Source: a virus (Duplodnaviria > Heunggongvirae > Uroviricota > Caudoviricetes). Taken from it: a DNA stretch of 47,366 nt. The stretch is from IMG/VR virus record IMGVR_UViG_2630968533_000004. One strand, 5' to 3'. Positions within the stretch are counted from its first letter, which is position 1. The number at the start of each line of letters is the position of its first letter. Shown here piece by piece: positions 35,683-46,082 of the stretch. The position numbers and the translations under genes are program-made. The notes under the pieces were generated by a model that saw only the letters and a list, made by a program, of their open reading frames with translations, had not been told where the DNA came from and did no database searches.

Positions 35683-38600
35683 ATGGGTAAAGGCAGCAGT
35701 AAGGGGCATACCCCGCGCGAAGCGAAGGACAACCTGAAGTCCACGCAGCTGCTGAGTGTGATCGATGCCATCAGCGAAGGGCCGGTTGAAGGTCCGGTGG
35801 ATAGATTAAAAAGCGTGCTGCTGAACAGTACGCCGGTGCTGGACAGTGAGGGGAATACCAATATATCCGGCGTCACGGTGGTGTTCCGTGCCGGTGAGCA
35901 GGAGCAGACACCGCCGGAGGGGTTTGAATCCTCCGGCTCCGAGACGGTGCTCGGTACAGAAGTGAAATATGACACTCCGATCACCCGGACCATCACGTCG
36001 GCAAACATTGACCGTCTGCGTTTTACTTTCGGCGTGCAGGCACTGGTGGAAACCACCTCAAAGGGGGACAGGAATCCATCGGAAGTCCGCCTGCTGGTTC
36101 AGATACAACGTAACGGTGGCTGGGTGACGGAAAAAGACATCACCATTAAGGGTAAAACCACTTCACAGTATCTGGCCTCGGTGGTGGTGGATAACCTGCC
36201 GCCGCGCCCGTTTAATATCCGGATGCGCAGGATGACGCCGGACAGCACCACAGACCAGCTGCAGAACAAAACGCTCTGGTCGTCATACACCGAAATTATC
36301 GATGTGAAACAGTGCTACCCGAACACGGCACTGGTCGGCGTGCAGGTGGATTCGGAGCAGTTCGGCAGCCAGCAGGTGAGCCGTAATTATCATCTTCGCG
36401 GGCGCATTCTGCAGGTGCCGTCGAACTATAACCCGCAGACGCGGCAATACAGCGGTATCTGGGACGGAACGTTTAAACCGGCATACAGCAACAACATGGC
36501 CTGGTGTCTGTGGGATATGCTGACCCATCCGCGCTACGGCATGGGGAAACGTCTTGGTGCGGCGGATGTGGATAAATGGGCGCTGTATGTCATCGGCCAG
36601 AATTGCGACCAGTCGGTGCCGGATGGCTTTGGTGGCACGGAGCCGCGCATCACCTGTAATGCCTGGCTGACCACACAGCGTAAGGCGTGGGATGTTCTCA
36701 GTGATTTCTGCTCGGCGATGCGCTGTATGCCGGTATGGAACGGGCAGACGCTGACGTTCGTGCAGGACCGACCGTCGGATAAGGTGTGGACCTATAACCG
36801 CAGTAATGTGGTGATGCCGGATGATGGCGCGCCGTTCCGCTACAGCTTCAGCGCCCTGAAAGACCGCCATAATGCCGTTGAGGTGAACTGGATTGACCCG
36901 GATAACGGCTGGGAGACGGCAACAGAGCTTGTGGAGGACACGCAGGCCATTGCCCGTTACGGTCGTAACGTCACGAAGATGGATGCTTTTGGCTGTACCA
37001 GCCGGGGGCAGGCACACCGCGCCGGGCTGTGGCTGATTAAAACAGAACTGCTGGAAACGCAGACCGTGGACTTCAGCGTGGGTGCCGAAGGGCTTCGCCA
37101 TGTGCCGGGTGATGTTATTGAAATCTGCGATGATGACTATGCGGGGATCAGCATCGGCGGGCGCGTGCTGGCTGTGAACAGCCAGACCCGGACGCTGACG
37201 CTCGACCGTGAAATCACGCTGCCATCCTCCGGTACCACGCTGATAAGCCTTGTTGACGGTCAGGGTAATCCGGTCAGCGTGGAGGTCCAGTCCGTCACCG
37301 ACGGCGTGAAGGTGAAAGTGAGCCGTGTTCCTGACGGCGTTGCTGAATACAGCGTGTGGGGGCTGAAGCTGCCGACGCTGCGCCAGCGCCTGTTCCGCTG
37401 CGTGAGTATCCGTGAGAACGACGACGGCACGTATGCCATCACCGCCGTGCAGCATGTACCGGAAAAAGAGGCCATCGTGGATAACGGGGCGCACTTTGAC
37501 GGCGACCAGAGCGGCACGGTGAATGGTGTCACGCCGCCAGCGGTGCAGCACCTGACCGCCGAAGTCACCGCAGACAGCGGGGAATATCAGGTGCTGGCGC
37601 GCTGGGACACGCCGAAGGTGGTGAAGGGCGTGAGTTTCCTGCTTCGCCTGACCGTGGCAGCGGATGACGGCAGTGAGCTGCTGGTCAGCACGGCCCGGAC
37701 GGCGGAAACCACATACCGCTTCAGGCAACTGGCGCTGGGGAACTACAGGCTGACAGTCCGGGCGGTAAATGCGTGGGGGCAGCAGGGCGATCCGGCGTCG
37801 GTATCGTTCCGGATTGCCGCACCGGCAGCACCGTCGAGGATTAAGCTGACGCCGGGCTATTTTCAGATAACCGCCACGCCGCATCTTGCGGTTTATGATC
37901 CGACGGTACAGTTTGAGTTCTGGTTCTCGGAAAAGCGGATTGCGGATATCAGGCAGGTTGAAACCACAGCCCGCTATCTTGGCACGGCGCTGTACTGGAT
38001 AGCTGCCAGTATCAATATCAAGCCGGGCCATGATTATTATTTTTACATCCGCAGTGTGAACACCGTTGGCAAATCGGCATTCGTGGAGGCTGTTGGCCAG
38101 CCGAGTGATGATGCATCCGGCTATCTGGATTTTTTCAAAGGAGAGATAGGGAAAACCCATCTGGCTCAGGAGTTGTGGACGCAGATTGATAACGGTCAGC
38201 TTGCGCCTGACCTGGCGGAAATCAGAACGTCCATCACGGATGTCAGTAATGAAATCACGCAGACCGTCAATAAGAAACTGGAAGACCAGAGTGCAGCGAT
38301 CCAGCAGATACAGAAGGTTCAGGTTGATACAAATAATAACCTGAACAGCATGTGGGCTGTGAAGCTGCAGCAGATGCAGGACGGACGCCTTTATATCGCG
38401 GGTATTGGTGCCGGTATTGAAAACACCCCTGACGGCATGCAGAGTCAGGTGCTGCTGGCGGCAGACAGGATTGCGATGATTAATCCTGCGAATGGCAACA
38501 CAAAGCCGATGTTTGTTGGTCAGGGCGATCAGATATTTATGAATGAAGTGTTCCTGAAATATCTGACGGCTCCCACCATTACCAGCGGCGGTAATCCTCC

Positions 38601-39162
38601 GGCATTTTCCCTGACACCGGACGGGCGGCTGACGGCGAAAAATGCCGATATCAGCGGTAACGTGAATGCGAACTCCGGGACGCTCAACAACGTCACGATT
38701 AACGAGAACTGCCGGGTTCTGGGAAAACTGTCCGCGAACCAGATTGAAGGCGATCTCGTTAAAACAGTGGGCAAAGCTTTCCCCCGGGACTCCCGTGCAC
38801 CGGAACGGTGGCCATCAGGGACCATTACCGTCAGGATTTATGACGATCAGCCGTTTGACCGGCAGATTGTTATTCCGGCGGTGGCATTCAGCGGCGCTAA
38901 ACATGAGAGAGAGCATACTGATATTTACTCCTCATGCCGTCTGATAGTGCGGAAAAACGGTGCTGAAATTTATAACCGTACCGCGCTGGATAATACGCTG
39001 ATTTACAGTGGCGTTATTGATATGCCTGCCGGTCACGGTCACATGACGCTGGAGTTTTCGGTGTCAGCATGGCTGGTAAATGACTGGTATCCCACAGCAA
39101 GTATCAGCGATTTGCTGGTTGTGGTGATGAAGAAAGCCACCGCAGGCATCAGTATCAGCTGA
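35683..39162 (+). CDS. Host specificity / central tail fibre protein (gpJ-like)
   Basis: 1159 aa, collinear with lambda J by size and position. Confidence 0.9.
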
Positions 39163-39229: not shown

Positions 39230-39829
39230 ATGCGTAAATTATGTGCTGTTATTCTGTCCGCAGTAGTCTGGCTGGTTGCCGCTGGTACGCCAGCGAGCGC
39301 AGCAGAGCATCAGTCCACACTAAGCGCCGGGTATCTTCAGACCCATACTGATATGCCAGGCAGTGATGACCTGAAGGGCATTAACGTGAAATACCGTTAT
39401 GAATTTACGGACACGCTGGGGCTGGTGACGTCATTCAGTTATGCCAATGCCAAAGATGAGCAAAAAACGCATTACAGCGATACCCGCTGGCATGAAGATT
39501 CCGTGCGTAACCGCTGGTTCAGCATGATGGCGGGGCCATCTGTACGCGTGAATGAATGGTTCAGTGCTTATGCGATGGCGGGTATGGCTTACAGCCGTGT
39601 GTCGACCTTCTCCGGGGATTATCTCCGCGTAACTGACAACAAGGGGAAAACGCATGATGTGCTGACCGGAAGTGATGACGGTCGCCACAGCAACACGTCT
39701 CTGGCGTGGGGGGCTGGCGTGCAGTTTAACCCGACCGAATCCGTGGCCATTGACCTTGCTTATGAAGGTTCCGGCAGTGGTGACTGGCGCACTGACGGTT
39801 TCATCGTGGGTGTCGGTTATAAATTCTGA
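39230..39829 (+). CDS. lom: Lom-like outer membrane protein (Ail/Lom family)
   Basis: Signal peptide; beta-barrel pattern; C-terminus IDLAYEGSGSGDWRTDGFIVGVGYKF matches recalled lambda Lom. Confidence 0.85.
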   Translation: MRKLCAVILSAVVWLVAAGTPASAAEHQSTLSAGYLQTHTDMPGSDDLKGINVKYRYEFTDTLGLVTSFSYANAKDEQKTHYSDTRWHEDSVRNRWFSMMAGPSVRVNEWFSAYAMAGMAYSRVSTFSGDYLRVTDNKGKTHDVLTGSDDGRHSNTSLAWGAGVQFNPTESVAIDLAYEGSGSGDWRTDGFIVGVGYKF

Positions 39830-39855
39830 TTAGCCAGGTAACACAGTGTTATGAC

Positions 39856-39882
39856 AGCCCGCCGGTTCAGGCGGGCTTTTTT
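39856..39882 (+). terminator. Rho-independent terminator after lom
   Basis: AGCCCGCCGGTTCAGGCGGGCT hairpin then TTTTTT. Confidence 0.6.
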
Positions 39883-39887
39883 GTGGA

Positions 39888-42266
39888 GTGGATATGGCAG
39901 CAGTAAAAATCTCAGGTGTGCTGAAAGATGGTGCGGGAAAACCAATACAGAACTGCACTATTCAACTGAGGGCAAAGCGTAACAGCACCACGGTACTGGT
40001 GAACACGGTGGCTTCTGAAAATCCGGATGAAGCCGGACGTTACAGCATGGATGTTGAGTATGGCCAGTACAGCGTCACCCTGCTGGTTGAAGGTTTTCCG
40101 CCTTCACATGCCGGGACCATTACCGTCTATGAAGGCTCCAGACCAGGTACGCTGAATGATTTTCTCGGTGCCATGACGGAAGATGATGTCATGCCGGAGG
40201 CATTGCGTCGTTTTGAGGCAATGGTGGAAGAAGTGGCACGCAACGCCGAAGCCGCCTCTCAGAGCGCAGCGGCGGCAAAGAAATCCGAAACTGCAGCGGC
40301 ATCATCAAAGAACGCGGCGAAAACCTCAGAAACGAATGCAGCTAATAGTGCACAGGCGGCAGCGGCCTCACAGACTGCATCGGCAAACTCCGCGACAGCA
40401 GCCAAAAAATCAGAAACCAACGCGAAAAATAGCGAGACAGCCGCAAAGACGAGCGAAACCAACGCAAAGTCCAGCCAGACGGCAGCGAAAACCAGCGAAA
40501 CGAATGCCAAAGCCAGTGAAACTGCGGCAAAAAACAGCCAGGTTGCAGCAGCCCAAAGCGAGAGCGCGGCAGCCGGTTCTGCGACTTCAGCAGCCGGATC
40601 AGCAACTGCTGCGGCTAACAGCCAGAAAGCTGCGAAGACGAGTGAAACTAACGCAAAGTCCAGCCAGACGGCAGCGAAGACCAGCGAAACGAATGCCAAA
40701 GCCAGCGAAACTGCGGCGAAAAACAGCCAGGATGCAGCAGCCGAAAGCGAGAGTGTTGCAGCTGGTTCTGCAAGCGCGGCGGCTGCTTCTGCCACTGCAT
40801 CAGCTAACAGTCAAAAAGCAGCAAAAACCAGTGAAACCAACGCAAAGACAAGCGAGACTGCGGCAGCTAACTCGGCGAAAGCATCCGCTGCAAGCCAGAC
40901 AGCGGCTAAAGCAAGTGAAGATGCAGCCAGGGAGTACGCAAGCCAGGCAGCTGAGCCGTATAAACAAGTTTTGCAGCCACTGCCTGATGTGTGGATACCG
41001 TTTAATGACTCGATGGATATGATTGCAGGATTTGGCCCGGGATATAAAAAAATAACAGTGCGCGATGATGTGGTCACTATACCATCCGACAAAATTGTCC
41101 CGTTTTCCCGCGCGAGTTCCGCGACCTATATCAATAAGTCCGGCGCTCTTACCATTGCAGAAATTAATGAGCCACGTTTTGAAAAAGAAGGGCTGTTAAT
41201 TGAAGGGCAGAGAACTAACTATCTAAAAAATTCTAATACACCGGAATTGTGGTACTACCACAGTTTACTGGCGAAAGAGTATGGGGTTGATAATTACGGT
41301 TTTAATTATGCAACCGTCACCGTGACAGACAGTCTTGTAGGCACAACCAGTAGTTATCAGATTCATAGTGTAACTGGAGAGAACAGGTTTTCTCTGTCCA
41401 TCGGTGAAACCTGCACTTTTTCTGCCCGCTTTCGTGGAGTTAATTCACGTTGTCGCGTCCATATATCTCTTGTTATTGGCGAAAATGTTAAAACATCCGT
41501 TGATGTATGTCTGGAGCCAGATACAGGTGAGGTTAAGGCGTACGGTAATAAGGCGCTGGTGACATTCAGAACGGAAAAACAGGGGGACTGGTGTTACTTT
41601 GAAACAACATATACCGCCGCAGAGAATATTGACGAAGTGGTATGCGGTTTTTTTATAACCAATCCTGAAGATGGTGGTTTTTCTTCTGATTCGTCATTAA
41701 CAATGACTACGCCGCAAATTGAAAAAGGGCCATGCGCTTCATCGTTTATTATTTCCGGAAACACACCAACCACGCGCGCCAGTGATATGGTTATTTTTTC
41801 AACCAGAAATAACATAAGTTCTGTCCCTTTAAGCTGTCTTGTTGAAATACATAAAAATTGGGACTCTACGCCAAATCAGGCCCCACGAATTTTAACCACT
41901 ATTGGCGTGGCGACTAATGATGAACAACTGGTATTGGCTTTCAGGACGCCTACAAGTCCGGATGTAGAACCTTTACCTTATGTTCAGTTTGGAGTGAGAT
42001 CTGCATATCTTAGTCCATCTGTGAAGGCCGGGCGCAAAATGATTGCTGGTTTTGTCTGTAATAGCTCGACTGAATTTCGTTGCTGTTGTAATGGTTACCT
42101 GTCACCTGTTCAGACTTCGTCATGGAAGAATACCGGAGCTGCACATGAAATACGTATTGGGGGAACTTCTGCTGGAGGAGAACGTCACTTGTTTGGTCAC
42201 GTTCGTAACCTGAGAATATGGCATAAAGAATTAACTGATGCGCAAATGGGGGAGTCAGTAGAATGA
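39888..42266 (+). CDS. stf: Side tail fibre protein (Stf-like) with Ala/Ser/Thr-rich repeats and distinct C-terminal domain
   Basis: N-terminus AVKISGVLKDGAGKPIQNCTIQLRAKRNSTTV... is lambda-Stf-like; central SETNAK/AAKTSE repeats; C-terminal third is AT-richer with no lambda-like sequence. Confidence 0.85.
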   Translation: MDMAAVKISGVLKDGAGKPIQNCTIQLRAKRNSTTVLVNTVASENPDEAGRYSMDVEYGQYSVTLLVEGFPPSHAGTITVYEGSRPGTLNDFLGAMTEDDVMPEALRRFEAMVEEVARNAEAASQSAAAAKKSETAAASSKNAAKTSETNAANSAQAAAASQTASANSATAAKKSETNAKNSETAAKTSETNAKSSQTAAKTSETNAKASETAAKNSQVAAAQSESAAAGSATSAAGSATAAANSQKAAKTSETNAKSSQTAAKTSETNAKASETAAKNSQDAAAESESVAAGSASAAAASATASANSQKAAKTSETNAKTSETAAANSAKASAASQTAAKASEDAAREYASQAAEPYKQVLQPLPDVWIPFNDSMDMIAGFGPGYKKITVRDDVVTIPSDKIVPFSRASSATYINKSGALTIAEINEPRFEKEGLLIEGQRTNYLKNSNTPELWYYHSLLAKEYGVDNYGFNYATVTVTDSLVGTTSSYQIHSVTGENRFSLSIGETCTFSARFRGVNSRCRVHISLVIGENVKTSVDVCLEPDTGEVKAYGNKALVTFRTEKQGDWCYFETTYTAAENIDEVVCGFFITNPEDGGFSSDSSLTMTTPQIEKGPCASSFIISGNTPTTRASDMVIFSTRNNISSVPLSCLVEIHKNWDSTPNQAPRILTTIGVATNDEQLVLAFRTPTSPDVEPLPYVQFGVRSAYLSPSVKAGRKMIAGFVCNSSTEFRCCCNGYLSPVQTSSWKNTGAAHEIRIGGTSAGGERHLFGHVRNLRIWHKELTDAQMGESVE
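40440..40820. repeat. Tandem direct repeat (about 2 x 189 bp) inside stf
   Basis: Block starting near 40443 (gcaaagacgagcgaaaccaacgcaaagtccagccagacggcagcgaa...) recurs near 40632 with a few substitutions. Confidence 0.6.
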
Positions 42267-42541
42267 AAGATTTTACGCTGAAGTTTCGAGATCGGGAAGG
42301 CTATAAAGCATTCTTGAATGAAATTAATTGGGAAGATAATGAAGTATTGCAAGATCAACTCCTGATTGATGAAATTGGATTCGCTTTCGATGAAGTCGGC
42401 AGAAATGCCGACGACGAACCAATTTATCAACGACGCGACGGTTATTTTGTAAATATTAGAATCTTAGATGAAAAGCTGGACGCATCACCATTTACCGGAA
42501 ATGTAGTGATTCTTGATGCTCCTCTTCGTGAATGGGCTTGA
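42263..42541 (+). CDS. Hypothetical small acidic protein in tail-fibre locus
   Basis: 92-aa ORF; start overlaps stf stop; AT-rich. Confidence 0.45.
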   Translation: MKDFTLKFRDREGYKAFLNEINWEDNEVLQDQLLIDEIGFAFDEVGRNADDEPIYQRRDGYFVNIRILDEKLDASPFTGNVVILDAPLREWA

Positions 42542-42551
42542 GGGGTAATAT

Positions 42552-43592
42552 ATGGCGAACTTAACAGTAATTCCTGATGACATCAAAACGCTAAAATCCG
42601 ACGTTAGCAAATTAAAAAAAGATCAAGGAAGCTACGCAACAAAATCATATGTAGACAATAAAACAACATGGAATGGTTATTGCAATGTAATCTATGATCA
42701 AAAGACATTGCCGACCACTGGAACTATATTTAGCGGTAAGATTCACTTGTCAAATAAGACAGGAGAAACCGAAAACGCTTATGGTGAGATGTACACCAGA
42801 AAAAATATTGACGGTACAAAAGATACAATGACAAGGATTGTCACACACAATGGAACAAAAGGTATCTTTTGGGATTTTAGCGATCTTTACGGTGGAACAT
42901 TAATTTTTCCAGGCAGTGATGGTTACCTTAAGATGGGGAACTGTCTCATGTCGTATGGTGTGCGGGGAAGTAACGCGCTTATTAAGTTTGACTGCACAGA
43001 CACATTACAAATCAAATATGCTAATCATGGGTCAACCATGACAATAAACACACAAGGAACCGCTCACGCTGGCGTTACTGCTAGCTTGTGGGGCAACTCT
43101 AGCCGTCCGGTTGTATATGAAGTTGGTGCTGATGGTGGCGCGTATATGTTCTATGCGCAGAAACATACCGATAACACCTATATGTTAAGCGTTAATGGTG
43201 CATGTCATGCCACCGCATTTAACCAGCATTCCGACCGGGATCTGAAAGACAACATTCAGGTGATCGATAATGCAACCGACCGCATCCGTAAAATGAACGG
43301 CTATACATACACTCTTAAAGAAAATGGCATACCTTACGCTGGTGTTATCGCGCAAGAAGCACTAGAAGCAATCCCAGAAGTTGTAGGCTCTGCAATGAAA
43401 TATCAGGATGGTGGAAGCGGGTCGAAAGGTGAAGAAGGTGAACGTTATTACACAGTAGATTATTCTGGTGTTACTGGCTTGCTTGTTCAGGTAGCCAGAG
43501 AGTCAGACGACAGAATAACAGCACTGGAAGAAGAAAACGCAGAATTAAGACAAAGATTATCTGCAATTGAGGTGGCGCTTGCGTCTAAATAA
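42552..43592 (+). CDS. Tail fibre / tailspike-like protein with C-terminal intramolecular chaperone (peptidase S74) domain
   Basis: C-terminus SDRDLKDNIQVIDNATDRIRKMNGYTYTLKENGIPYAGVIAQEALEAIPEVV...YYTVDYSGVTGLLVQVARESDDRITALEEENAELRQRL fits the endosialidase-chaperone pattern. Confidence 0.7.
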   Translation: MANLTVIPDDIKTLKSDVSKLKKDQGSYATKSYVDNKTTWNGYCNVIYDQKTLPTTGTIFSGKIHLSNKTGETENAYGEMYTRKNIDGTKDTMTRIVTHNGTKGIFWDFSDLYGGTLIFPGSDGYLKMGNCLMSYGVRGSNALIKFDCTDTLQIKYANHGSTMTINTQGTAHAGVTASLWGNSSRPVVYEVGADGGAYMFYAQKHTDNTYMLSVNGACHATAFNQHSDRDLKDNIQVIDNATDRIRKMNGYTYTLKENGIPYAGVIAQEALEAIPEVVGSAMKYQDGGSGSKGEEGERYYTVDYSGVTGLLVQVARESDDRITALEEENAELRQRLSAIEVALASK

Positions 43593-43598
43593 TATTAA

Positions 43599-43619
43599 GG
43601 GGCCGAGCGCCCCGTTTTA
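43599..43619 (+). terminator. Hairpin + T-tract after fibre gene
   Basis: GGGGCCGAGCGCCCC then GTTTTATT. Confidence 0.5.
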
Positions 43620-43628
43620 TTGGGTGGG

Positions 43629-43928
43629 ATGAAAATGGATATAACACCTTTCCTTCATGCACTTTGTGCTGTGGCTGCGCAGGTACTGGTTGGCCTTTTT
43701 ACCGGAAACTGGGTTTACGGTGCGATAGCCGGTTGTACGTTCTTCATTGCGCGTGAACACACCCAGGCAGAATATCGCTGGATTGAAATGTTCGGGCATG
43801 GCAAGCGAATGAATATGCCGTGGTGGGGCGGTTTTGATCTACGCGCGTGGGATGTAGCAAGCCTGATGGATTTTGCTGTGCCGGTGGTGGCGTGTCTGCT
43901 GGTCTGGCTGTTGGTTAATCGTGTGTGA
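43629..43928 (+). CDS. Small membrane protein (two predicted TM helices)
   Basis: Hydrophobic segments ALCAVAAQVLVGLF and FAVPVVACLLVWLLV; start ambiguous (TTG 43620, ATG 43629 or 43635). Confidence 0.5.
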   Translation: MKMDITPFLHALCAVAAQVLVGLFTGNWVYGAIAGCTFFIAREHTQAEYRWIEMFGHGKRMNMPWWGGFDLRAWDVASLMDFAVPVVACLLVWLLVNRV

Positions 43929-44155
43929 AAAAAGGTGAGCTGTATATGCAACGGAGGAAGAAACCCCGTTGCTGGAAGCATGGAAAAAGTATCGGGTATT
44001 GCTGAACCGTGTTGATACGTCAACTGCACAGGATATTGAATGGCCAGCACTGCCGTAGGGTAAAACATATAAATTCTATAATTAGATGTATCTTTCCATT
44101 TACGGCAAGGAAGGGGGCTTGGAAGACGTAAAGCATCTCACACCGAGATTATTTT

Positions 44156-44746
44156 TTATATGTCAGGTGTCTGAAGTTTTGCTTTGGCTCTTAAAATGGT
44201 TTGCCGCGAGGTTTTGAATTCCCGGGCAATGGCACTTATACTTACACCTGACTTAATTCGTTCGAATACCACCTGTTTCTGTTCTTCATTTAACACAGGT
44301 GGTCGACCAAAACGTTTCCCTGCGCCGCGGGCTCTTACTATCCCGGAATGAGTGCGTTCAAGTAAAAGGTCTCGTTCAAATTCAGCGACTGCTGAAATTA
44401 CTTGCATCATCATTTTTCCTGTTGGACTGGTCAGGTCAATGCCACCCAATGCTAAGCAATGCACTCTGATACCTGTTTCGGTCAGTTGTTCCACTGTTTT
44501 CCTGATATCCATTGCATTACAACCAAGGCGATCCAGTTTTGTCACAATCAATTGATCACCACATTTCAGGCGAGCAAGCAACCGGTTAAAACCAGGACGC
44601 TCACTGGTTGCTGCTGAGCCGCTAATGTGTTCTTCGATTATTTGCTGAGGTTTGATTTTAAAACCTGCACTTTCGATTTCCCGGCGTTGATTTTCGGTGG
44701 TCTGATCCAGCGTTGATATCCGACAGTAAGCAAAAATTCGAGACAT
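44156..44746 (-). CDS. pin: Serine recombinase, DNA invertase (Pin/Gin/Hin family)
   Basis: 196 aa; N-terminal catalytic region [16 protein letters not shown] (Ser nucleophile) and C-terminal HTH; matches Pin-family invertases. Confidence 0.9.
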
Positions 44747-45062
44747 AGTGAGACTCTATACGAAATTGGTGTTCATATCATAATGCATCTCAGAAAATAA
44801 TTATGATTATTTTTGTGCATATTTGTATGTACACGTTCGAAAATAAACGAATGCGTATGCAACCCCGTAATTTTGGTGAGACCCAAAATCGATTTTGTGA
44901 AAAAAGGCTTTAACTCGGTTTGTTTTTCGAGTTCCGGGCGGACTCAAGGAAGAAGAATAGTGTTGCGTGTTATTTTAACCAGATTTCAAGTTGTTTGGTC
45001 GTGGAAAAGTGGAGCAAAATGTTGTTAAAGTGGAAAAATGATAAAAAAGTAAGTTTATTATA

Positions 45063-45296
45063 TTACATTTTACCATTTAAATTTTGGTTGTCTTTAAGAA
45101 CTGATATCGCTGTTTGTAATAATTCTTTGTTATCCAGCCATGATTTTTTCTTTATGTTTCCTTCAATGTAATCAAGCAATGTTCTGGTATTGATAGGTCT
45201 TCCCTGTTTTGCTACTTCCACTACAGCATCCCCTAGGATAATTCTTACTTCAGGAAGCTGCGCAGGGAACCACTTTAGGGTGTCTTTTGATTTCAT
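45063..45296 (-). CDS. YdfK/YnaE-like small prophage protein
   Basis: Internal Met gives 77 aa MKSKDTLKWFPAQLPEVRIILGDAVV...; position next to pin as in Qin. Confidence 0.5.
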   Translation of the reverse strand: MKSKDTLKWFPAQLPEVRIILGDAVVEVAKQGRPINTRTLLDYIEGNIKKKSWLDNKELLQTAISVLKDNQNLNGKM

Positions 45297-46082
45297 GAAG
45301 ATATTCCTTAAAATATTATTGATTTTCATTGCGATATTGTATGTCTGATTCAGGATATGTTGACTTATACATCGGTTTTGTCTGGGTTATTGGATATGCC
45401 AATCCCTAATTTTATTAGGGCATGACTAAAAATGCTGAATATGATAAGGAGAGATGTGATTATCAGTATGCTGTTCATATAGCCTCGAATTAGTAATGTG
45501 TTATATATGATATAGTTGACAATTTTTATCTTGGGTGTTCTTAAAGTTCGTAGATAAACATTGTCGTTTCAGGTATACAGGAATGCTAACAGGTGGCAGC
45601 AAAAATCAGGCGGTTTATGGCGCAAGCTGAAGCGGCAACTGTAAACTATCTTATGCAGAGACTCTACACGGATTGGGTTTAAAAGTATACATAGATAACA
45701 GTTTTTATCTGAAAAAGAAAAATATCAAGGTGATATAGCCTATATGCCTTTGATGCGGAGGAATGAATGTGATGGGAGTGATGTATCTGAATAGTTGAAA
45801 AACCGCAGACACGCCTTATGCAAGAACGTGCTGCGGTTGGCTGGTAAATTTTTCGATAGTGTGAGTATTGAATGATTTCCAGCCGTTCTTGATTTTACGC
45901 ATAAATCCATGAAAAAACTACTTATCTGTTGGGGAGTTTTTTTTGGGGCATATATGGGACAGAAATAGGCCCCAGATAGACACTGAGATCGAACTTAGGA
46001 TGCTTTTTAAAAAATGCAACTATCTGAAAAAACCTAGAAAACGCCAAGGAAACCACAGGATGGGAAAAAACACCTGTGAATT

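Follow-up and report, generated by a model that had tools for sequence, protein, structure and literature searches.

The lateral fibres of small siphoviruses can comprise two or more proteins (Maffei et al.). For the T5-like phage IrisVonRoten (Bas32), an AlphaFold-Multimer model attaches a T-shaped distal fibre, Gp24, which carries an intramolecular chaperone, to the proximal fibre Gp22, whose C-terminus forms a protruding galectin-like domain proposed as an extra receptor-binding site (Humolli et al., doi 10.1101/2024.09.12.612763). In the part of that account dealing with these fibres the 92-aa protein is given no role, and one sentence calls 'Gp23' the proximal fibre, apparently a numbering inconsistency. 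In DT57C, with its branched, L-shaped fibres (as in DT571/2), LtfB was shown genetically to be attached via LtfA, whose C-terminal region determines O-antigen specificity; only ltfA and ltfB are described at this locus (Golomidova et al. 2016, PMC4728585). No LtfB density was found on the DT57C virion core (Ayala et al. 2023). Here we describe a corresponding locus in a window of 47,366 nucleotides, the whole of IMG/VR virus record IMGVR_UViG_2630968533_000004 (Caudoviricetes), in which the side tail fibre gene stf is followed by a gene for a small acidic protein (orf92) and by a gene for a 346-aa protein (orf346). We consider it likely that these genes together specify a two-part side tail fibre, in which orf346 would be an exchangeable distal fibre docked on Stf, on the orf92 product or on both. 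An Eligo preprint on engineering of lambda Stf and a paper on phage 9g were found to hold nothing on this module.

All three genes lie on the forward strand. The stf gene extends from the RefSeq start ATG at 39894 to 42266 (790 aa); the list of open reading frames (ORFs) starts it at a GTG at 39888 (792 aa), and Stf residue numbers are counted from there. It is followed by orf92 at 42263-42541 (92 aa) and orf346 at 42552-43592 (346 aa, preceded by a GAGGGG ribosome-binding site). An earlier reading of the DNA by eye and translation only, here called the original prediction, had pointed out an acidic 92-aa ORF and a 346-aa protein after stf, and both were recovered, the former with a pI of 4.28 (21 Asp plus Glu against 11 Lys plus Arg). 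The genes are homologous to, and in the same order as, gp22, gp23 and gp24 of IrisVonRoten. Gp22 and Stf share 42.5% identity over 767 aa and both end in a galectin/ConA-like module; Gp23 and the orf92 product share 47% identity, and both are 92 aa long and encoded directly after the proximal fibre. The IrisVonRoten distal fibre has the N-terminus MxTKTVIPxDIxKLK and ends in an S74 chaperone, as does orf346. The locus thus encodes an anchored proximal fibre with a C-terminal galectin/ConA-like module, a 92-aa protein of family phrog_1361, and an anchorless distal fibre headed by a short conserved peptide, which we call the plug. The two systems differ in their anchors, IrisVonRoten having a T5-type anchor that needs LtfC whereas Stf has a lambda-type one, and in their distal fibres: Gp24 is a T-shaped protein of 574 aa with two receptor-binding domains, and orf346 aligns only to the second, T5-like domain and the chaperone (24% identity, Gp24 residues 264-571).

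Stf matches phrog_1419 over its full length and can be divided into three parts. Residues 5-134 are a lambda-type virion anchor (PF08400, E 2.4e-66; PDB 9e7m, the lambda Stf N-terminus, E 1.7e-48). The shaft, approximately residues 135-355, consists of 7-residue repeats encoded by 21-nt periodic repeats, which are seen at 40309-40864 and include a 189-nt tandem duplication (40389-40766). The length of Stf among relatives ranges from 585 to 801 aa, suggesting that shaft length shifts through gain and loss of repeats. The remainder (residues 356-792; 40953-42263, forward strand) is a variable, lectin-like C-terminal module, StfC. No Pfam family matched residues 356-792, and the NCBIfam model GTA_spike_fiber matched residues 437-631 (41196-41780, E 2.6e-18). 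An AlphaFold2 (AF2) monomer model of the C-terminus shows two beta-sandwich domains, the second ConA/LamG-like, with a mean pLDDT of 67.5; it is poor at model residues 1-89 (approximately Stf 355-443), a region likely to be the trimeric junction and docking region. Comparison of five lambdoid relatives showed near-identity up to Stf residue 355 and strong divergence in the C-terminal module, where conservation is confined to a few motifs. This makes it probable that Stf is itself a receptor-binding protein, and its carbohydrate-binding-like C-terminal module probably provides a receptor-binding site of its own, the ligand of which would be a glycan. Within the region that the monomer model failed to fold, Stf residues 393-406 (41064-41105), DDVVTIPSDKIVPF, resemble the distal-fibre plug LTVIPDDIKTLK; this likeness may be due to chance, or may reflect a strand-mimicry element at the junction.

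The orf346 protein likewise consists of three parts. Its first 37 residues (42552-42662, forward strand), beginning MANLTVIPDDIKTLKSDVSKLK, form the plug and proposed docking peptide, with a heptad pattern of I7/I11/L14/V18/L21; the original prediction had remarked on the short N-terminus and put it at about 45 residues, close to the conserved stretch of about 37. Residues 38-226 (42663-43229, forward strand) are the predicted receptor-binding body, and the last 120 residues (227-346; 43230-43592, forward strand) comprise a Peptidase_S74 intramolecular chaperone and a C-terminal coiled coil. A chaperone of this type in the C-terminal 120 or so residues had been expected in the original prediction, with a Pfam search named as the check, and PF13884 was indeed detected at residues 227-278 (E 7.6e-14; 52.2 bits against a cut-off of 22). 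A Ser/Lys pair spaced five residues apart is the hallmark of S74 self-cleaving chaperones. The dyad in orf346 is S227-D-R-D-L-K232, with this spacing, which aligns to SDRRIK in gp37 of Salmonella phage S16; when nine distal fibres were aligned, S227, D228 and K232 did not vary. Cleavage at this site would yield a mature fibre of 24.8 kDa (226 residues) and a released chaperone of 13.2 kDa. T5 pb1 and the K1F endosialidase resemble orf346 in PF13884, the S-x4-K dyad and the C-terminal position of the domain, but are much longer and have virion- or adaptor-binding N-terminal domains of their own.

Across the five lambdoid modules compared, orf346 residues 1-37 and 111-346 are conserved and residues 38-110 occur as two allelic types. 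The gene is under purifying selection (dN/dS 0.12-0.27). A profile of the distal fibres matched the C-terminal half of DT57C LtfA (PDB 8hqz, residues 529-1073; E 3.3e-29) across both body and chaperone, and further matched the S16 gp37 tip (E 9.6e-14) and the self-cleaving domain of MYRF. With the single orf346 sequence as query, the S16 gp37 tip and chaperone was the closest solved match (PDB 6f45, E 8.6e-4); in S16, however, the processed gp37 tip is capped by a separate adhesin, gp38, and no gp38-like gene is present here. Since the LtfA C-terminal region sets O-antigen specificity in DT57C, a glycan receptor can reasonably be supposed for orf346. DT57C is also similar in having an anchorless second fibre held by the first, two specificities, and S74 chaperones on both fibres. 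It differs in that LtfA ends in its own S74 tip, with no lectin-like C-terminal module reported, and in that the LtfB plug (the N-terminal 45 residues) resembles phiEco32 gp15 (PMC4728585), whereas the orf346 plug is of another sequence type: a DT57C/phiEco32-type plug was not found, as neither DT57C nor phiEco32 was among the 28 records matched when 50,697 phage records were searched by tblastn with the orf346 N-terminus. Matches of orf346 were also found to the C-termini of the long fibre families phrog_6578 and phrog_5668. The first of these (fibres of 1210 aa) matches both Stf residues 36-225 and orf346 residues 148-340, which suggests that in this family an orf346-type tip is covalently joined to an Stf-type shaft.

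We then classified the neighbours of orf92 relatives in 80 IMG/VR loci; counts are given on 79. A StfC-type ORF ends exactly at the start of orf92 in 78 of the 79, and the remaining locus has no upstream sequence. On the downstream side, orf92 is followed directly by a small membrane protein gene, orf102, in 42 loci (the arrangement of phage 21), by an intervening ORF in 33 and by the contig edge in four. The intervening ORFs encode 64 to 586 aa, some being truncated, and every one of the 33 starts with M-(A/V/T)-T-x-T-x-IP-x-DI-x-x-LK. This plug motif was never met apart from StfC and orf92 in these loci (33/33), and it is adjacent to orf92 in every phage record that lists both positions. Distal proteins of lambdoid, T1-like, Seuratvirus and T5-like phages begin with it, and the same N-terminus is found in the distal proteins of IrisVonRoten, VogelGryff and swan01. 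Eight types of distal protein were scanned for domains, resulting in an S74 match in six, the 224-234-aa forms among them, a Gp34_trimer domain in place of S74 in one and no match in one. The proximal fibres of the T5-like and T1-like phages do not match the Stf anchor described here, yet keep the StfC module, orf92 and the motif; the shared partner of the plug must therefore be StfC or orf92. That these two are its only constant partners argues that the distal fibre docks there and not on the tail. The survey also indicates that the distal fibre is optional, while the lectin-type fibre end is obligatorily accompanied by an orf92-type protein, both in loci that encode a distal fibre and in those that lack one.

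Two further arrangements were observed among these relatives. Distal ORFs of 224-234 aa (L073:6292-6996 and approximately 12 similar IMG/VR loci; swan01, L008:3194-3868) have their S74 chaperone from residue 99-116 onward, and their predicted mature product is a stub of approximately 100-115 residues that seems to be largely coiled coil and in which no receptor-binding domain is obvious. In the rV5-like myovirus nimi (L090:562-5333), a 1479-aa tail fibre ends in a lectin-type module (30% identity to Stf 351-792). Next comes an orf92 relative of 110 aa, divergent past residue 70, and no ORF with the plug motif lies behind it.

The orf92 gene is translationally coupled to stf, its ATG overlapping the stf stop codon (ATGA), with a GGGGGAG ribosome-binding site upstream. 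The protein belongs to phrog_1361 (E 5.1e-34) and had no sequence match in Pfam, NCBIfam or the PDB. Structure prediction of the 92-aa protein alone, another check named with the original prediction, gave a confident, compact alpha/beta fold (AF2 from 22 sequences, pLDDT 93), which matched no known fold among solved structures. As had been claimed, no lambda-type Tfa gene follows stf, and a small ORF stands in the tfa position; the only trace of tfa is a 3' remnant further downstream. We rejected a lambda/Mu-type Tfa as the identity of orf92, which has neither a Tfa domain by sequence nor a Tfa-like fold. The locus thus resembles the lambda Stf-Tfa cassette, and those of Qin and Rac, in its slot after J and lom, in the Stf anchor and in having a small gene directly downstream, but differs in the type of Stf tip, in orf92, in the extra fibre gene and in retaining only a scar of tfa. 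Exhaustive HMMER searches also returned multi-stretch matches of orf92 on giant proteins with PKD repeats (P0023, P0033, P0040, P0042 and P0051; E down to 1.8e-18). A PKD/Ig-like domain was rejected on the basis of the confident alpha/beta model, and the likeness is probably motif-level similarity (INWxD..., GYFVNIRILD).

A word-indexed protein search for orf92 yielded only E. coli relatives of at least 79% identity and thus understated the family, the breadth of which became apparent by tblastn against phages and by exhaustive search. By tblastn, 188 phage records were found, mainly lambdoid phages (including phage 21), Drexlerviridae, Seuratvirus, Dhillonvirus, T5-like and rV5-like phages. 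In alignments of 21-22 sequences, D36, G60, V63, N64, R66 and W91 are invariant or nearly so across phage groups. The gene is under purifying selection (pN 0.37 against a saturated pS of 0.77), and among phage-21-type loci, i.e. without a distal fibre, pN/pS is 0.24-0.42. No functional description of a 92-aa protein of this type was found in the literature searched. Given that orf92 follows a StfC-type end whether a second fibre is encoded or not, and does so in an rV5-like myovirus too, it belongs to the Stf tip rather than to orf346, and its constraint where no distal fibre is encoded (phage-21-type loci, nimi) makes the Stf tip its primary tie. A partnership with the Stf tip is accordingly more likely than a role as docking adaptor only.

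The window corresponds to a stretch of E. coli FDAARGOS_497 with 99.996% identity and is apparently a complete lambdoid prophage at the Qin site, inserted in ydfJ. Its genes run in the order integrase, replication, lysis, HK97-type head, lambda-type tail, J (35683-39162), lom (39230-39829) and stf; on the 3' side of the fibre module lie pinQ, ydfK, ynfT and a truncated ydfJ. The genes stf, orf92 and orf346 are closed by an intrinsic terminator-like element on the forward strand at 43599-43623, consisting of the hairpin GGGGCCGAGCGCCCC (43599-43613) and a T run. Just past it lies orf102 (43620/43635-43928, forward strand; 97 aa from the ATG at 43635), the small membrane protein gene encountered in the survey, with approximately three predicted transmembrane segments and a match to phrog_1443. 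Its counterparts in phage 21 and in most of the approximately 60 lambdoid IMG/VR loci that have it are about 95% identical, with or without a distal fibre, and it may be a moron or lysogenic-conversion gene. The 3' remnant of a lambda/Qin-type tfa (43948-44058, forward strand; annotated as a pseudogene in RefSeq) indicates that stf-orf92-orf346 displaced an older lambda-type stf-tfa cassette. Adjoining it is the invertase gene pinQ (44156-44746, reverse strand). A Pin-invertible fibre segment was ruled out, as no inverted repeats usable as crossover sites were found in 39800-45400, and pinQ therefore appears orphaned, as in Qin. Of 5426 complete E. coli genomes, 84 contained the module DNA at ≥99% identity; related versions are carried by the isolated phages Tritos, HannyBb, PhiR63_1, 2G7b and PhiR11_1 and by the linear-plasmid prophage PhiR46_1.

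In the arrangement that we favour, Stf would be the proximal part of the fibre, anchored to the tail tip by its lambda-type N-terminal domain and extended by its 7-residue-repeat shaft, and orf346 would be the distal part, trimerising with assistance from the S74 chaperone at its own C-terminus. The chaperone would then cut itself off at Ser227, with Lys232 as catalytic partner, leaving the mature 226-residue fibre. The first 20-37 residues of orf346 (TVIPxDIxxLK and approximately two heptads of coiled coil) would plug into the C-terminal module of Stf, into the orf92 protein or into both, and the distal fibre would supply an optional, exchangeable second specificity. The orf92 protein would be the dedicated partner of this fibre end, most likely an assembly factor in the place of Tfa, and may remain in the socket. 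That the 346-aa protein docks onto Stf or the 92-aa protein to form an exchangeable or branched tip had been put forward in the original prediction, and from the sequence comparisons this emerges as the best-supported reading of the attachment: proteins with the same motif and different bodies always follow StfC and orf92 in phages whose anchors do not match, and the published AlphaFold-Multimer model places the homologous distal fibre of IrisVonRoten on the proximal one.

An alternative is that orf346 acts on Stf in trans as a chaperone and is not a structural fibre, as the names 'putative lateral tail fiber chaperone' and 'endosialidase chaperone' given to homologues in VogelGryff, ESCO3 and JK16 imply; moreover, the 234-aa variants have only approximately 115 residues ahead of the S74 domain. 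S74 domains, however, act in cis on their own polypeptide, as is established for the K1F endosialidase and T5 pb1. Since orf346 in addition has a receptor-binding-type body of approximately 190 aa homologous to fibre tips, and Stf-type fibres with orf92 occur without any orf346-like protein in phage 21, in 42 loci and in nimi, we regard a role in trans as quite improbable. It is somewhat easier to imagine, though still unlikely, that orf346 is a short fibre in its own right, bound directly to the tail tip and not via Stf or orf92. Its N-terminus looks like a generic coiled coil, a sequence-based analysis demonstrates no contact with Stf, and weak densities near the DT57C tail tip have been described, tentatively as folded-back LtfB (Ayala et al.). 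Such an attachment is difficult to reconcile with an N-terminal motif that is the same in lambdoid, T1-like, Seuratvirus and T5-like phages, including T5-like and T1-like ones whose proximal fibres lack the Stf anchor, and that always stands beside StfC and orf92; 37 residues would also be very short for a virion anchor. Least probable of all is that the module is an inactive relic inside a decaying prophage. The Qin site, the adjoining tfa scar and the orphan pinQ fit such decay, but the prophage is fully equipped with genes for integrase, replication, lysis, head and tail, the three fibre genes are all intact and all under purifying selection, and the same module is present in plaque-forming phages.

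A further alternative leaves the two-part fibre in place and differs only in the role of orf92, which would join Stf physically to the distal fibre, as connector or socket, instead of serving as a chaperone. The position of the gene between the two fibre genes, the residues that hardly vary across phage groups, and the compact, confidently predicted fold, which fits a structural protein, would be in keeping with this, as would the orf92 relative of nimi, which lacks a distal fibre and has a different C-terminus past residue 70. Conversely, orf92 is kept under purifying selection in phage-21-type lineages that have no distal fibre, and the IrisVonRoten account, in its part on these fibres, describes Gp22 and Gp24 only. 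A connector is thus a possibility that we hold to be the less probable one. Similarly tentative is a broader proposal, in which orf92 and the conserved part of the lectin-type fibre end would form a universal socket and TxIPxDIxxLK a universal plug, through which unrelated coliphages (lambdoid, T1-like, Seuratvirus and T5-like) would exchange distal fibres irrespective of size; in that case orf92 would represent a novel type of connector or assembly factor, its fold lacking any close counterpart among solved structures.

Together, these data indicate that the stf-orf92-orf346 module is a lambdoid example of the modular two-part lateral fibre already recognised in a T5-like phage. They add a plug motif common to at least four phage groups and heading distal proteins of very different size, the optionality of the distal fibre, and orf92 as the constant companion of the lectin-type fibre end, with a predicted fold matching nothing characterised. 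The O-antigen types that a siphophage can pass are determined by its side and lateral fibres. Should the short peptide at the N-terminus be a portable plug, host range could be reprogrammed by swapping a gene of approximately 1 kb while leaving the virion anchor untouched. Engineering of this kind would need the role of orf92, as chaperone or as connector, to be defined, the 92-aa protein accompanying this fibre type in at least 188 phage records. If the plug is indeed portable, such swapping would be open to lambda-based delivery vectors and likewise to phages of the T1, T5 and Seuratvirus types.

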